From an uncultured Armatimonadetes bacterium (GTDB lineage: Bacteria; Armatimonadota; UBA5829; DTJY01): 64,000 bases of DNA. The stretch is from the NCBI GenBank assembly GCA_963717145.1, contig OY970325.1:3264001-3328000 (forward strand). The letters are read 5' to 3'. The notes under the pieces were generated by a model that saw nothing but the letters and a program-made list of their open reading frames with translations, did no database searches and was not told the DNA's origin. The position numbers and the translations under genes are program-made. This document shows, one piece after another, positions 42,234 to 57,710 of this stretch (position 1 is the stretch's first letter; each line of letters begins with the position of its first letter).

Positions 42234-42309
42234 TGGCAGGGGCAACAGGGCTCGAACCTGCGACACCCGGTTTTGGAGACCGGTGCTCTACCAACTGAGC
42301 TATGCCCCT
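42234..42309 (-). tRNA. tRNA-Trp (CCA)
   Basis: AGGGGCATAGCTCAGTTGGTAGAGC...CTCCAAA...GGTTCGAGCCC...GCCA. Confidence 0.97.
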
Positions 42310-42374
42310 CCGTATTCCGCATAGATGTTACCACATCGGACTGAGATTGTAAAGCGCGAGCCTCGGAGGCCCTG

Positions 42375-42438
42375 TAGTGGCCGCGCCTCAGTGCCGGCCT
42401 CGGACGCGGAATGGCCGGCACTGCGGCACGGCCACTAC
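42375..42438. repeat. GTAG-type REP inverted pair; further copies at ~31586, 40634, 60039 and 60077
   Basis: GTAGTGGCCG(T/C)GCCTC(A/C)GTGCCGGCC consensus. Confidence 0.85.
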
Positions 42439-42447
42439 AACATGCCC

Positions 42448-42609
42448 CTACTTCGCCTCGCGGTGTACGCTGTGCTTGCGGCACTTCTTGCAGAACTTCT
42501 TCAGCTCGATGCGGTCAGGATCGCTCCGTTTATTCTTTGTTGTCGCGTAATTCCTCGACTTGCAGTCCTGGCAAGCCAAGGTGATCACAACTCTGGCGTC
42601 TGTTGCCAT
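42448..42609 (-). CDS. rpmG: 50S ribosomal protein L33, zinc-binding form (absent from the ORF track)
   Basis: Manual translation [53 protein letters not shown]. Confidence 0.97.
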
Positions 42610-42731
42610 GTACGGTCAAACCTTCCTAAGATCGCCCCCGATGTTGGGGACGAAAAGACATGCAGCCCGGAGCCATGACGGGCATGAAGCCCCAGGCTAC
42701 ATATCTTCATTTCCTTGTGTACTGACTTACC

Positions 42732-43946
<1,215 letters not shown>

Positions 43947-44046
43947 CTCTTATCGCCTCCCAATGATCAGCGTAGTATCGAGAGCTCAGAAGTCCGGAGC
44001 ACGCTCGACTCGCTGCCTCCGAATCTACCGCTCTGACTATACTAAA

Positions 44047-44121
44047 TGGAGCCCACGATGGGAATCGGACCCATGACCTCCTCTTTACCAAAGAGGTGCG
44101 CTACCTCTGCGCTACGTGGGC
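44047..44121 (-). tRNA. tRNA-Thr (GGT)
   Basis: GCCCACG acceptor stem, anticodon loop TTGGTAA, encoded CCA. Confidence 0.93.
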
Positions 44122-44286
44122 ACGCTTCGTGCCTGAAGCGACTAACGAACCGTGGGAGCCGTTGAAGCCTCCCGGAGGCCGTGAAGGCCTCCCCTACGGA
44201 TGACATGGTTAATGGAATGGCGAATGGTCGATGAAAGCTCGGGCCATCCATGGACCATCGGCCATAAACCATCAACCATTTGTTAA

Positions 44287-44372
<86 letters not shown>

Positions 44373-44419
44373 ATATCAAATTCGAACTTCGAATCTCGAA
44401 ACTCGAAATTCGAAGTCTA

Positions 44420-44495
44420 TGGAGCCGACGATGGGACTCGAACCCGCAACCTGAGGTTTACAAAACCCCTGCTCTGCCAATTGAGCTACGTCGGC
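44420..44495 (-). tRNA. tRNA-Thr (TGT)
   Basis: GCCGACG acceptor stem, TTTGTAA loop, GGTTCGAGTCC, CCA. Confidence 0.96.
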
Positions 44496-51896: not shown

Positions 51897-53346
51897 CTAC
51901 TCCGTAGCGGTTCCCCCGACGGTCATCTCGGAGACCTTGACGGTCGGCATGCCGACGGTCGTCGGGCGCCCTGGCCGCCTTTGCCGCATGTGCCGATCCC
52001 CGGGTCGAGCTTCAGGTCGGAGCCGACCATCACGACCTTCGTCAGGACGTCCGGCCCGTTGCCGATCAGGGTCGCGCCCCTGATCGGCGACGTGAGCTTG
52101 CCGTTCTCGATCAGATAGCCCTCGGTGATGCTGAAAGTAAAGTTGCCGTTCGTGATATCTACCTGACCGCCGCTGAAGTTCGCGGCGTAGACCCCCTGCT
52201 TGACCGACTTGACGATCTCCTCCGGGTCGGATTCACCGGCCTCCATGAAGAAGCACGTCATGCGCGGGATCGGGTAGTCGTGATAGCTCTGACGCCGGCC
52301 GTTGCCGGTGAGCGGAAGTCCGAGCAGCCCGCCGTTCAGACGGTCAGTCATGTACCCGCGAAGCACACCGTTCTCGATCAGCACCTTTCGCTGACCGGGA
52401 GTGCCCTCGTCGTCTATGTTGATGGTCCCCGAGCGCCGAGGATGGTGGCATCGTCCACCAGGGTGCAGATGTCGGTGGCGACCTTCTCCCCCAACCTGCC
52501 CGCGAAGATGCTCATGTTCTTTCGGATGAAATCAGCTTCGAGCCCGTGTCCGACCGCCTCGTGGAGCAGCACCCCACCCCATGCGTTCTTGATGACCACC
52601 GGCATCATCCCCGCGGGCGCCGGCACTGCATCGAGTTGAACGACCGCGATCCGAGCGGCTTCCCGACCGATCTCCTCCGGGGAGACCGCGTCGAAATACT
52701 CCATGCCGACCCGTCCGCCGCCTCCGTAGCTCCCACTGCGGCAAATGTCCTTCTCCGTCGCCAGGCATTGCATCCCCATGCGGATCATCGTCTGGCGGTC
52801 GGCGACCCAGAGTCCTTCGGAGTTGGCGACGACGATCTCCTTCGCCTCGTCCGAGAACGCGGCGTCGACCTGCTTGATGCGATGGTCATAGTCATAGGCA
52901 GCCTTGTTCGCGCGCTTAATGAGCGATATCTTCTGCTTGACCGGGCTTCCCGACGGGTCGATCTCGACGGTATAGAAGTTGGGGGCACTCTCAGGAGTGA
53001 TGCTGATCGGGCTCTCATGACCCGATCCGGCGGCGATGAAGGCGGCGGTCCGAGCGGACTCGAGGAGGCTCTCCCTGTCAAGGCGGTCGGAATAGGCATA
53101 TCCGGTCTTCTCGCCGGAGAGCACGCGGATCCCGACGCCCTGACTGACGCGCATCTCGGCGGACCGGATCTTGCGTTCCTCGAGGGGGATATTCGTACTC
53201 TTCGACCGTTGGATGTAGACCTCCGCGAAGTCGCCCCCGCGGCTCAAGGCGGCGGAGAGGAGCTTCTCGATCTCTTCCTTTGGCAGCAGAGCGGAGACTT
53301 CGAGTTCGGGTGCGATTCTGCTCGGCGAACCGGCTGTCAGTTCCAT
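51897..53346 (-). CDS. tldD: TldD metalloprotease; frameshifts at ~52430-52390 and ~51965
   Basis: [39 protein letters not shown]. Confidence 0.92.
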
Positions 53347-53446
53347 GTGGCATCCCTATTCGCAAAGGTAATGGACAACGGGTGAATGTTAGCAGAACGC
53401 CTCAACCTTCGTCAAGCTCAGGCCCTGGCGCGGGTGCATTTCCGCA

Positions 53447-53590
53447 GAGTGGGTCAGCCTCGCGTTATGCCACCAGAGTGGCTACTCGAGGAGAACGGTT
53501 GGGTGGTCTGCCAGGCTTCCCAAGCCCCAACCGTCTAGTCTCGAGTAGGTTTCTCTGGAAACCATAACGAGAGACGGTCGCCACCCACTC
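53447..53590. other. Structured repeat / candidate ncRNA, copy 1
   Basis: Four-way fold with hairpins GCCAC-CAGA-GTGGC and GGTTTC-TCTG-GAAACC; homologous to 55624..55746. Confidence 0.7.
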
Positions 53591-54254
53591 AACTCGAATG
53601 CACCCCCCTGGCGCCGTCCTCAACGACGAAGATGCCGGTGTCGGCCATCAGATTGGGGAGGAAACTGACGACGTGGCATTGGCCCTCACCGGTCGTGCGC
53701 AGGGGGATCTCCTTGAGGATTCGGAGGTCGGCTACCCGGCAGAAATCGCGAAAATCGGCCAGTGTCGCCAGGTGGATGTTCGGCGTGTCGTACCATTCGT
53801 ACGGAAGCCTGGGACTCTTCGGCATGCGGCCCATGATCCCAAGCTGAAATCTTATCCGGAGGTAGCCGAAGTTCGGGAAGCTGATGATGCACTTCTTGCC
53901 GACCCGCGCCATCTCCTTGATGAGGAACAGGGGCCGCTGGAGAACCTGGATCGTGTTCGTCAGGATCACGTAATCGACGGACTGGTCTCCGTAATCCGCC
54001 AGTCCCTCGTTGAGGTTTCCGTGGTGGACGTTGAAGAGCCCCTTCGCAACGCACGACTGGATGCATTCTTCGGACAACTCGATCCCCTCGGCGCGGACGT
54101 TCTTGAGCGCCTTGAGAGCCTTTAGCAGGTCGCCCTCGCCACATCCGAGGTCCATCACCCGGCTGCCCTCGTCGATCAGGTCGATGATGACCTTGTGCTC
54201 GGGTGCCAGGTGCAGGACGGAGCCGTCTTCGTTCATTGTGGTTTCTTCGGCCAT
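53589..54254 (-). CDS. metW: Methionine biosynthesis protein MetW
   Basis: VMDLGCGEG, ISFPNFGY, LPYEWYDTPNIH; adjacent to metX. Confidence 0.93.
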   Translation of the reverse strand: MAEETTMNEDGSVLHLAPEHKVIIDLIDEGSRVMDLGCGEGDLLKALKALKNVRAEGIELSEECIQSCVAKGLFNVHHGNLNEGLADYGDQSVDYVILTNTIQVLQRPLFLIKEMARVGKKCIISFPNFGYLRIRFQLGIMGRMPKSPRLPYEWYDTPNIHLATLADFRDFCRVADLRILKEIPLRTTGEGQCHVVSFLPNLMADTGIFVVEDGARGVHSS

Positions 54255-54276
54255 ACTAACCCTTAGGTAAGTCCCC

Positions 54277-54379
54277 ACCGTCAGTCCTGAGTGCGCCTCT
54301 GGGCGTGTAACGAAGGACGGCCTTACTGCACCGAGCCGTCCTTCGTTACACGCCCAGAGGCGCACTCAGGACTGACGGT
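54277..54379. repeat. Perfect 45-bp inverted repeat between metX and metW
   Basis: ACCGTCAGTCCTGAGTGCGCCTCTGGGCGTGTAACGAAGGACGGC and reverse complement. Confidence 0.9.
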
Positions 54380-54396
54380 TGCGCAGAATGACAGAG

Positions 54397-55539
54397 CTAC
54401 CCCTTCTTGTACCCGTGCTCCAGGAAATTGCCGATCAGCCGGGTGAGCTGACCCGCCTCCAACAGGAACGCATCGTGCCCGTAGTCCGTCTCGATCTCCG
54501 TGTAGATCGCGTCGACGTTGTTGAACCTCAGGGCGCTGATGATCTCCTTCGACTGATAAGACGGGAAGAGCCAGTCGGACGAGAATGAAATCACCAGGAA
54601 CTTCGATTTCGAGCCCGCGAACGCCTGCTTCAGCGTTCCGAACTGCTGCCCGAGGTCGAAGTAGTCCATCGCCTTGGAGATATACAGGTATGAGTTGGCG
54701 TCGAACCGCTTCACGAAGCTGTCGCCCTTGTAGCGCAGGTAGCTCTCGACCTGGAACTCGGTGACGAAATCGTATCCATACTCGGCCTTGTCCTGCAGGC
54801 GTCGCGCGAACTTTTGGTGCATCGACTTGTCGGACAGATAGGTGATGTGCCCGATCATCCGCGCGATCGAGAGTCCCCTGTGCGGGATCGTCTTGCCATA
54901 GTAGTCGCCGCCCATCCAGTCGGGATCGGACATGATCGCCTGCCTGCCGACCTCATCGAACGCGATCGCCTGTGCGGAAAGGCGCGCGGTCGTGGCAATC
55001 GGGACCGCGAGGCGGACCATTTCGGGGTAGCTGCAGACCCATTGCAGGACCTGCATCCCGCCCATCGAGCCGCCGATAACGCAGAGGAGCTTGTCGATGC
55101 CGAGGTGATCGAGCAGCGCCTTCTGGGCGTTCACCATATCCTGGATCGTGACGACCGGGAACGACAGCCCATACGGCCGCTCGGTCTGCGGGTTGATCGA
55201 ACTCGGCCCGGTGGAACCCTTGCACCCACCGATGATATTCGCGCATACGACAAAGTACTTGCTGGTATCGATCCCCTTGCCGGGGCCGACCATGATGTCC
55301 CACCAGCCGCTCGGCTTCTCCTCGTCCGCGCTGCTGTAACCCGCTGCATGGGCGTCGCCGGAGAGCGCGTGGAGCACGAGGATGGTGTTGTCGCGGGCCT
55401 TATTCAACTCGCCGTAGGTCTCATAGGCGAGGGTAATCGGCCCGAGCTTCCGCCCGCATTCGAGTTCCATCTCGTTCGGCGGCTCGGCGAATGTGAAGGT
55501 CTTGGTCTCTACGATTCCGACGGATCCGTCCTCGATCAT
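54397..55539 (-). CDS. metX: Homoserine O-acetyltransferase
   Basis: [14 protein letters not shown] nucleophile, FDANSY, SSDWLFP, GHDAFL. Confidence 0.96.
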
Positions 55540-55545
55540 GGCGCT

Positions 55546-55575
55546 ATTATCCATGATTGGGGGCACGGTCGTCAA
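55546..55575 (-). promoter_or_regulatory. Sigma70-type promoter just before the metX ATG (possibly leaderless)
   Basis: TTGACG-18bp-GATAAT, 6 nt upstream of the ATG at 55539, with no RBS. Confidence 0.5.
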
Positions 55576-55623
55576 TCATTGGAGTGCGGCGTGTGGGAGG
55601 CGACTCCAGTCGGCGATGGCTCT

Positions 55624-55746
55624 GGTCAGCCTCTCGTTATGCCACCAGAGTGGCTACTCGAGGAGATCGGTTGTTCTGTTCCCGATCCCCAAAACCGTCT
55701 AGTCTCGAGTGCGCTCTCTGGAGCGTGTACCGAGTGACGGCCTGGC
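55624..55746. other. Structured repeat / candidate ncRNA, copy 2
   Basis: Hairpins GCCAC-CAGA-GTGGC and CGCTC-TCTG-GAGCG; same core as copy 1. Confidence 0.7.
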
Positions 55747-55757
55747 CGCGCAACCTG

Positions 55758-57710
55758 TCAGAAGTTGAACTTCCATCCGTGGACCATGAGGAAGATCCAC
55801 ACGTCGAGGACCGGATGCAGTATCGGCTCGTTCTCCCGGACGTACTGCTTCACCCGCTCCCAGTCCGCGACGGCGGTTTCCTTGTCGTCCCGCGCGCGAG
55901 CTTCGAGCGCTCGGGAGAGCATCGCGCAGATCTCGGCGTGATACCGCAGATACTCCCACGACCTCGACCAGCAGGGATTCGCCCTCGACCCATTCAGCTC
56001 GATCACCGGCATGAACTCCCGGATGACGCCGGGGATGTTACCCAGTCTCTCCGCTGCCTCGGGATCGACTGCGGGCTTCTCGCCGCGCATGTACACGGGG
56101 TCGAAGAGATCGGTGAGCCGTGTCAGATACGCCCTGCACGCCGCTCCGTCGGGGCCGAACGCGCTCTCGAAGTAGTCCTGAGCGATCTCATCGAACCCGA
56201 GGTCGCGCTTCCAGAGCGTCCGAGCCATGACGGTCATCGGCAGCCCGGTCGGGAGCCAGGCGCGCTGGACCTGGCAACTGCTCAGGCCGTTCAGCCCGAG
56301 GTCCCTCAGGCCCTTCATGTCGAGGCCGAGGATCCGGGCCGTCTGCATGTAGCCGGGGTCGTGGACGTGGTCCCACATGAGGTGGTAGTCGAAATCGAAG
56401 CTGTCGCCCTGGAAGAGTCTCTGCCACTCGCGGAGGAAAGCCACGTTCGCATCGACACTCTTCGGGAACTCGAGCTTGTTCCGCTTGAACTCGGGCAACT
56501 CCAGCGGCTGTAGGGGCGTGCCTTGTGCCGCCCGGCACGTCGGATCGGGCGGCACAAGGCACGCCCCTACAGCCTCGTCCACAAATGCCGAGCTGTAGGT
56601 CCGGGTGATCGGCGCAAACATCAGAATGAATCGGTCGGGATTGGCGAATCGCTCGTGCTCCGGCGGCCAAAGCAGGTCGACGTAGATCAGGAAGACGATC
56701 CGCGTGTTCAGCCCTCTGCCGGTCAGCATTTCGTCGAGTTCGTTCAGCATTCGGACGTAGAAGTCCGACGGGCGGGTATCCCGACACAACTCGCACTCGC
56801 AGTGATTGTTCACGCCGTCCGCGAGCCAGAAGTGCATGATGTCGATCTGCGGATGACCCTGGGCATAGTCGGCGATCTCCTCGACGACGATCCGGCGCGC
56901 CTCGGGGTTGCCGTAGCAGAGGTTGGTGTTCAGGGCGAATCCGCCGAAGAGTTCACGCTTGCCGTTGATCTCCGCGAGGTACTTTCGCGCCGACTCGGGA
57001 ATCTCGCCCTCGTACTTCACCCATCCCGTGCCGCTGATCCCGAACGGCTCGCAGGTCCATCCATGGCCGACCGCGTGATAGAGCAGGCCGCGTTTCTTGA
57101 TCTCATCGACCGCCCGCGCCGTATACTCACGCGCCTGCTCGATCGAGATCGGCTCGCTCGCCATCAGAGGATTGTTCTCGTGCGAGTACCAGCGGTCGAA
57201 GAACGTGTGTCCCTCGCGGAACTGGATGAAGTAGCCGTTCATCCCGACCCTGGGCAGCCATTCGATGTTGTCGCGGACGTGCTCGAAGCTGACCGCGCCC
57301 TCGATGCAGAGGCACCTGTGGCGGTAGGACGGCGTCTCGGATAGCTTGATCGGCGGAAGATCGGAGCGGGGGGGAATATGTTCACCGGAAGCGCCGGGAC
57401 GGACCCACCGGCATCCGAGTTCGGTCAGGTATCGGTAGACGGCCAGGAGGACGCTTCTGGGGTTGTTCCCGGCGATGAATCCTCGACCATCCGCCACGTC
57501 GATGCTGATGGCGTCATCCACGAGGGGATCAGCCACCGTCGGCATCTCGATCGCGAGGTCGGACGCCAGCCCGACGTTGATCCCCTCCGCCGACTTCCCG
57601 ATCGTGATCGAGGCATCAGCCCCGGTCATCCGCCCGAGGTACTTCGCCAGTTCCCCCGCGGCATACCGAACCGTCTGATGCTCCCCGATGCAGTTGACCT
57701 GAATGCTCAT
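55758..57710 (-). CDS. DUF4838-like putative glycoside hydrolase-fold protein
   Basis: YAAGELAKYL, LAVYRYLTELGCRWVRPG, HFWLADG.NNHCEC..C. Confidence 0.75.
   Translation of the reverse strand: MSIQVNCIGEHQTVRYAAGELAKYLGRMTGADASITIGKSAEGINVGLASDLAIEMPTVADPLVDDAISIDVADGRGFIAGNNPRSVLLAVYRYLTELGCRWVRPGASGEHIPPRSDLPPIKLSETPSYRHRCLCIEGAVSFEHVRDNIEWLPRVGMNGYFIQFREGHTFFDRWYSHENNPLMASEPISIEQAREYTARAVDEIKKRGLLYHAVGHGWTCEPFGISGTGWVKYEGEIPESARKYLAEINGKRELFGGFALNTNLCYGNPEARRIVVEEIADYAQGHPQIDIMHFWLADGVNNHCECELCRDTRPSDFYVRMLNELDEMLTGRGLNTRIVFLIYVDLLWPPEHERFANPDRFILMFAPITRTYSSAFVDEAVGACLVPPDPTCRAAQGTPLQPLELPEFKRNKLEFPKSVDANVAFLREWQRLFQGDSFDFDYHLMWDHVHDPGYMQTARILGLDMKGLRDLGLNGLSSCQVQRAWLPTGLPMTVMARTLWKRDLGFDEIAQDYFESAFGPDGAACRAYLTRLTDLFDPVYMRGEKPAVDPEAAERLGNIPGVIREFMPVIELNGSRANPCWSRSWEYLRYHAEICAMLSRALEARARDDKETAVADWERVKQYVRENEPILHPVLDVWIFLMVHGWKFNF

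Follow-up and report, generated by a model that had tools for sequence, protein, structure and literature searches.

What are the two hairpin-rich stretches that bracket metX and metW in this genome: a regulatory RNA tied to methionine, or an element that moved there? The question arises from a 64,000-nucleotide stretch of DNA (the window) from an uncultured Armatimonadetes bacterium (assembly GCA_963717145.1, contig OY970325.1, positions 3,264,001 to 3,328,000), in which a preliminary description made from the letters alone had reported two copies of a four-way structured element and had proposed that it was either a structured non-coding RNA (ncRNA) of a new kind or a mobile element selected for its structure. 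The second half of that proposal stands, with ends matching an insertion sequence (IS), a 9-bp target duplication and some 30 copies in the genome, while the RNA half found no support. We conclude, with a probability of about 0.88, that the two stretches are members of a single, lineage-restricted family of mobile non-coding repeats and that copy 1 is a miniature inverted-repeat transposable element (MITE) of a resident IS of the ISKra4 group. Copy 2 is a relative of the MITE core that has no terminal inverted repeats (TIRs) and is embedded in a mosaic of repetitive extragenic palindromes (REPs). Since the genome holds about 30 copies and one of the pair is a complete, apparently IS-moved MITE, the element is best regarded as an ordinary mobile element and not as a methionine-linked RNA.

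The two copies were correctly located and do resemble each other. Aligned, they show a mean column identity of 80% and have in common the blocks GGTCAGCCTC-CGTTATGCC, a GCCAC-CAGA-GTGGC hairpin, CTACTCGAGGAGA and AACCGTCTAGTCTCGAGT, followed by a second hairpin with the loop TCTG in both and unlike stems (GGTTTC/GAAACC versus CGCTC/GAGCG, as first reported) and then by CGAG-GACGG. The extent first given for copy 1, 53447-53590, was too short; its real boundaries are 53432 and 53605, with CCCTGGCGC at both sides, and its parts are as follows:

53432-53605, + strand: copy 1, a complete 174-bp MITE that encloses the earlier 53447-53590 and has 88-99% identical copies elsewhere in the genome
53423-53431, no strand: left copy of the 9-bp target-site duplication CCCTGGCGC, a perfect match to the right copy
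53606-53614, no strand: right copy of the 9-bp target-site duplication CCCTGGCGC, a perfect match to the left copy
53432-53454, + strand: left TIR of the MITE, 23 bp, equal to the IS right end at 20 of 23 bases
53452-53579, + strand: MITE core, an inverted doublet of a REP-like unit of about 48 nt
53583-53605, + strand: right TIR of the MITE, equal to the IS left end at 22 of 23 bases and holding the metW stop codon
53386-53415, - strand: promoter-like TTGACG-18-TAACAT of a TldD-like gene, its -35 box 16 nt outside the MITE left end

Copy 1 is one of many. Used as a query against the window's own genome (5.37 Mb), it gave 63 matches, and a search with a profile of the core recovered 32 full-length loci on both strands, plus fragments; the pair is thus not specific to metXW, and no link of the element to S-adenosylmethionine or methionine was found. 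When the copies are aligned together with their flanks, the MITE starts with GGGTGCAT and ends with ATGCACCC. A 9-bp direct repeat flanks most copies, and in 19 of 32 it has no more than one mismatch. The element is short (165-229 bp over the 32 loci), non-coding and dispersed; five loci have no recognisable IS-type end on at least one side. At one fragment locus (L032, 198-575; genome C1:4329497-4329874) a 68-bp unit that corresponds to the left arm of the core and half of its centre is repeated 5.6 times in tandem, with 95% matches.

The family is narrowly distributed. Of 151 genomes sampled from the phylum, two (G000 and G006, the latter from another genus of the same family) were hit by a covariance model of the core under stricter filters, and a BLAST-type search matched 3 of 41 close relatives. 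A metagenome scan returned 20 contigs, seven of them true members and all from one project, and exact-pattern scans of a named genome collection gave 0 hits. A looser pattern gave two hits in that collection, which the covariance model did not confirm.

The partner of the MITE is found through its ends. Motifs of the MITE type recur in the window's genome as 11 pairs exactly 1433 bp apart, and one such IS unit (L031), flanked by its own 9-bp duplication (GACACCTGC), carries an open reading frame (ORF) of 431 codons. The 431-aa protein scores 274.5 bits on NF033572, the profile of the ISKra4 family transposase (cut-off 205), and 43.4 bits on PF06782. Outside the terminal repeats MITE and IS share nothing, their interiors being unrelated, and no similarity to the IS was found in copy 2. 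From this arrangement we infer both the transposition chemistry and a mobilisation in trans by the IS: its Mutator-like DDE transposase would bind both MITE ends, make a 9-bp staggered cut at a target about 16 bp upstream of a sigma-70-type -35 box, and insert the MITE with the end that resembles the right inverted repeat (IRr) of the IS next to the promoter. The MITE would thus consist of 23-bp IS-derived ends wrapped around an unrelated core of about 130 bp.

These properties are those of a described group. According to the parts of Guerillot et al. (2014, PMC3942029) on which we draw, ISKra4-group elements insert 13-17 bp from sigma-A promoters, have direct repeats of 8-9 bp and inverted repeats of 18-39 bp, and insert in an oriented manner, with IRr set next to the promoter. 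As far as these parts describe the group (p-MULT 4, Mutator-like DDE), the MITE is like it in its TIRs, its 9-bp duplication, its distance of about 16 bp from a -35 box and its promoter-side IRr; it is unlike it in being a 174-bp element that has no transposase gene and whose interior is a REP-like doublet. Neither 'MITE' nor 'miniature' occurs in the main text of PMC3942029, literature searches combining ISKra4 with MITE turned up no such element, judged by titles and abstract openings, and combining MITE with Armatimonadota they turned up nothing related.

Insertion of copy 1 has altered a protein. The element lies within the last metW codons, in front of the promoter of the TldD-like gene, and the present metW stop codon (53589-53591, minus strand) falls in the right end of the MITE. 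The MetW tail now reads ...DGARGVHSS*, and ...DGARA* after in silico removal of the element and one repeat; the MetW profile match stops short of the altered tail, and in annotation the five final MetW residues should be understood as derived from a transposon. The MITE is absent from this site in a relative of about 90% identity, in which contigs of two runs (X2 and X3, one soil sample) join 53421 to 53614. Contigs of a further run (X5) rejoin the right end of the MITE (53605) to its left end (53432) across nine other letters, with two different 9-mers at depth 8-9. Such joins may come from tandem insertions into a single promoter target, from a circular intermediate of transposition or from an assembly cycle; circular intermediates are of a kind reported for related elements.

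Placement relative to promoters was examined across the genome. According to gene calls made with our own codon-bias heuristic (4223 genes, 86% of the genome), the left, IRr-like end of the MITE faces a gene start in 27 of 32 copies. When a box is scored as TTGACA with at most one mismatch, 14-17 nt outside the element end, it is found mostly on this side:

MITE left ends: box at 14-17 nt in 15 of 27, at exactly 16 nt in 10
IS right ends: box at 14-17 nt in 6 of 11, at exactly 16 nt in 6
MITE right ends: box at 14-17 nt in 2 of 22, at exactly 16 nt in 2
IS left ends: box at 14-17 nt in 0 of 12, at exactly 16 nt in 0
random genome positions: box at 14-17 nt in 262 of 20000

At the locus itself, each copy sits after a minus-strand stop codon and ahead of a promoter-like site, as had been noted (TTGACG-18-TAACAT for copy 1, TTGACG-18-GATAAT for copy 2), and a consensus scan finds only these two promoter-like sites within 53250-55850, one per copy. 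That the copies lie upstream of the next gene's promoter is explained by the target choice of the transposase and not by a function of the element. The locus therefore offers a clean natural case, in a little-studied phylum, of the promoter-targeted and oriented insertion of the ISKra4 group, here carried out by a non-coding passenger. As a separate observation, two MITE copies and one IS copy (C1:2240966, 2676133 and 1489040) have nearly the same flank at the IRr-like end, ...GTGTTGCCTCATTTA(G/A)CTTTGTTACCGAAACGCCATTCGTTGC, which means that a repeated target region was hit three times or that the region was duplicated with its insert.

Another explanation of the placement is that the host uses the copies, either as insulators or as RNA-stabilising or RNA-processing hairpins between the upstream gene and the next promoter, which would liken them to Correia elements or to REPs in mRNA. 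Very stable hairpins do stand between gene end and next promoter here, and the two window copies fall within one series of genes on the same strand. Nevertheless, published transposase target choice accounts fully for the placement, no terminator-like T-tract was seen after copy 1 or copy 2, and the relative manages without the element at the copy 1 site; we regard host use as improbable. The Correia elements of Neisseria and the enterobacterial repetitive intergenic consensus or intergenic repeat unit (ERIC/IRU) are imperfect palindromes of roughly 100-170 bp that lie near genes and fold into rods when transcribed, and the MITE is like them in general form, as a gene-proximal, scattered imperfect palindrome. 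Correia elements duplicate TA, versus 9 bp in the MITE.

Could the element still be an RNA? The proposal was of an ncRNA antisense to the genes, with kissing loops or a rod/four-way switch, perhaps sensing a methionine metabolite. In its favour, copy 1 folds strongly whichever strand is taken (-71.6 kcal/mol with z -5.0, and -78.1 kcal/mol with z -5.7; none of 200 shuffles did as well), and hairpin stems that differ in sequence stay paired nonetheless. In the window's genome 29 of 32 copies have tip loops that complement each other exactly, but these copies are near-identical. The preliminary description had itself staked the kissing loops on further copies keeping the complementarity, and the diverged ones do not: among 18 copies from G006 and G001 the loops are complementary in one, not complementary in 11 and not scorable in six (hairpin lost or not extracted). 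Where a copy is fully palindromic, its second hairpin is just the first one reverse-complemented, and complementary loops are what an inverted duplication yields.

A strand preference, which the G-U pairs of copy 2 had suggested, was likewise not general. Copy 2 does have more G-U pairs on the + strand (six versus three). Of the eight REP-flanked relatives of copy 2 in G006, six are more stable on that strand by 4-11 kcal/mol and have more G-U pairs there, a preference that may be due to shared descent. However, the two strands of copy 2 fold equally well (-46.5 versus -47.1), and no strand is consistently preferred over 47 copies, where the more stable strand is + in 12 and - in 35 (8 versus 9 outside the window's genome). 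Searches of Rfam 15 gave no match to either copy, whether at the gathering score across the window or, for 53300-55900, at E up to 10, and in that interval the only hits were spurious microRNA models on a 117-bp palindrome between the genes; the earlier failure to match a known RNA consensus is in this respect confirmed. With about 30 copies beside unrelated genes, transposon ends and target duplications present, and members in only 2 of 151 genomes of the phylum, we consider an ncRNA very improbable, and one riboswitch or ribozyme candidate can be struck off.

What, then, accounts for the four-way look? Each arm of the core carries a tip hairpin, and the two arms flank a variable central hairpin. 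Each arm aligns with the reverse complement of the other and with the arms of the 117-bp palindrome at 54270-54386, so the core had wrongly been called unlike the local REPs. The common unit of about 48 nt, ACCGTC-(T)AGTC-TCGAG-TAG, then the tip hairpin, then ATAACGAG-AGACGG, is itself an imperfect, self-folding palindrome, whose head is GAGTAG in most copies and GAGTGC or GAGTAC in copy 2 and its relatives. The four-way appearance follows from this nested dyad symmetry, an inverted doublet of a palindromic unit. The nearly perfect 117-bp palindrome is one of a family that occupies 89 loci of the genome and whose arms hold a variable tip hairpin in a conserved frame; 54 of its 72 intergenic full-length loci lie between same-strand genes, and no transposase partner was found for it.

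Stem pairing, reported for the two copies, extends to further ones and is accompanied by covariation. The internal helix of the unit occurs as GTCTC/GAGAC, GTGTC/GACAC, GCTTC/GAAGC and GCCTC/GAGGC, and the second hairpin has at least eight different stems, being lost in four G006 copies (L037, L039, L042 and L062). We counted pairs in 24 diverse copies under two fold models and compared them with 500 shuffles. The arm-local model has 95.4% of cells paired, with 20 cells in which both sides have changed (4.2 in shuffles; none of the 500 as high), and for the rod/four-way model the figures are 92.7% and 16 cells (6.5 in shuffles; again none of the 500), counts to be read with the caution that related sequences can outdo shuffles without any structure. 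The central CTACTCGAG/CTCGAGTAG helix of the rod/four-way model shows no compensatory change.

Such pairing need not mean selection: within a nested palindrome, quasi-palindrome correction (by template switching in replication) or conversion between arms could carry a change across from one stem side to the other, keep stems paired and mimic compensatory evolution. In several copies, all perfect palindromes, the right arm reproduces the left exactly as its reverse complement, and one of these copies shows an A-to-G change in each of the four stem strands. There are also mixed copies, whose right arm holds the hairpin of the left arm, and the covariation is limited to short local stems. On the other hand, at least eight unrelated stems of the second hairpin would be hard to obtain by point-wise correction, and the four G006 copies persist after losing that hairpin. 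A purely mutational origin of the pairing is accordingly a tentative idea, somewhat unlikely in our judgement, even if it is the strongest of the alternatives weighed here.

The context of copy 2 is a different one:

55618-55748, + strand: copy 2, core only, with neither ISKra4 ends nor target duplication
55591-55617, + strand: REP of the TGTGGGAGGCGACTCCAGTCGGCGAT type, directly adjoining copy 2 and also found flanking a Y1-transposase gene (genome 5159789-5160013)
55546-55575, - strand: promoter-like TTGACG-18-GATAAT upstream of metX; the REP that adjoins copy 2 has its outer end 15-17 nt away

As IS ends and a target duplication are both missing from copy 2, the MITE mechanism is shown for copy 1 alone. 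Copy 2 is the sole IS-end-less, REP-joined copy in the window's genome. The REP on its left flank is a separate repeat with 15 genome copies, four of which bracket the Y1_Tnp gene (35.7 bits) within C1:5159557-5160271, the classic arrangement of a REP-associated tyrosine transposase (RAYT). An identical REP-core junction occurs in G006, where the other end of the REP-joined copies is a second REP or a unit of the 117-bp palindrome. The nearest G006 copy is 87% identical to copy 2 and is not its orthologue, as neither metX nor a neighbour gene lies within its 3-kb locus. In four runs contigs end at 55589 and restart at 55767, and none spans copy 2. Promoter targeting by TGTGGGAGGCGACTCCAGTCGGCGAT-type REPs was considered and rejected: among the 15 copies inspected by eye, TTGAC stands near the outer end only at the REP of copy 2, and we take this spacing to be either fortuitous or a remnant of some earlier insertion.

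These junctions raise the possibility that the core was REPIN-like in origin (a REP doublet forming a hairpin), moved as single-stranded DNA by a Y1/RAYT-type or unknown enzyme, and captured its ISKra4 ends later. The family would then have had two routes of mobilisation, which is compatible with copy 1 being a MITE. REPs, REPINs and bacterial interspersed mosaic elements (BIMEs) are mobilised by RAYT transposases, and the present family is like them in its short hairpin unit, in inverted doublets that fold long, in REP mosaics and in stems that vary yet pair. Homology of the arms to the 117-bp palindromes, GAGTAG followed by a hairpin in both arms, tip-hairpin stems that vary and still pair, a covarying helix inside the arm, IS-end-less copies, present in two genera, that share one junction with bona fide REPs, and seven Y1_Tnp matches in the window's genome are all in keeping with such an origin. 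The family differs from REPs, REPINs and BIMEs, however, in its inconstant head motif (the head tetranucleotide is GTAG, GTGC or GTAC), in having one subfamily with DDE-type ends and 9-bp duplications, and in that no unit-flanked Y1 gene was found: core arms flank 0 of the 9 Y1 loci examined in G000 and G006. Tip hairpins were never found outside core copies in the window's genome, and no target or junction signature of Y1 transposition was identified. We view a REPIN-like origin as unlikely, though only a little less plausible than the mutational account of the stems. A related candidate, free-standing REP hairpins with their own RAYT, was rejected for this genome, in which hairpins occur only in core copies and no Y1 gene is flanked by arms.

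Several observations weigh against the account preferred here. The relative's copy 1 site holds 41 other letters in place of the element, and is a replaced site, not a precise empty one. A clean 9-bp duplication is absent from 13 of 32 copies, the orientation count depends on heuristic codon-bias gene calls, and copy 2 has IS ends and a target duplication on neither side. No ISKra4 transposase was found with this query in G006, an 80-contig draft where the same core occurs with other flanks, nor in the G001 draft assembly. Finally, the core has conserved blocks and covarying hairpins, and we know of no DDE transposition step that needs them. A more speculative reading, unlikely as we see it and more probable only than the RNA and host-use proposals, takes the core as a self-standing, structure-selected REP-like doublet that was packaged both in DDE-type, promoter-targeting ends and between REPs of a tyrosine transposase. 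If this were true, one non-coding module would ride two unrelated mobilisation systems, and the covarying hairpins of this module would have a role in some step that both systems share, such as single-strand folding that brings the ends together. The wider interest of the family lies here: a MITE has as its interior a REP-like doublet that is also present in copies without IS ends, and the hairpins of this doublet pair while their sequences change.

For annotation, the intergenic 'structures' around metXW are repeats, and the region combines repeats of at least three kinds in a mosaic, set among the following features:

52414-53346, - strand: TldD-like gene, downstream of copy 1
53589-54254, - strand: metW (NCBIfam profile, 226.9 bits)
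54270-54386, no strand: 117-bp palindrome between metW and metX, its arms homologous to the core arms
54397-55539, - strand: metX (NCBIfam profile, 533.6 bits; the start codon is our reading)

Some minor points concern these genes. The match of the TldD-like gene (52414-53346, minus strand) covers only the first 300 or so of 481 TldD profile positions, a separate 153-aa ORF (51923-52384, minus strand) comes after it, and the gene may be split or frameshifted. The only gathering-score hits of Rfam in the window are four tRNA genes on the minus strand, at 42237-44495. The -10 box of the promoter-like site of metX ends 6 nt ahead of the ATG taken as its start (55539-55575), so that the metX mRNA may be leaderless, or else the start or the promoter has been mis-called.

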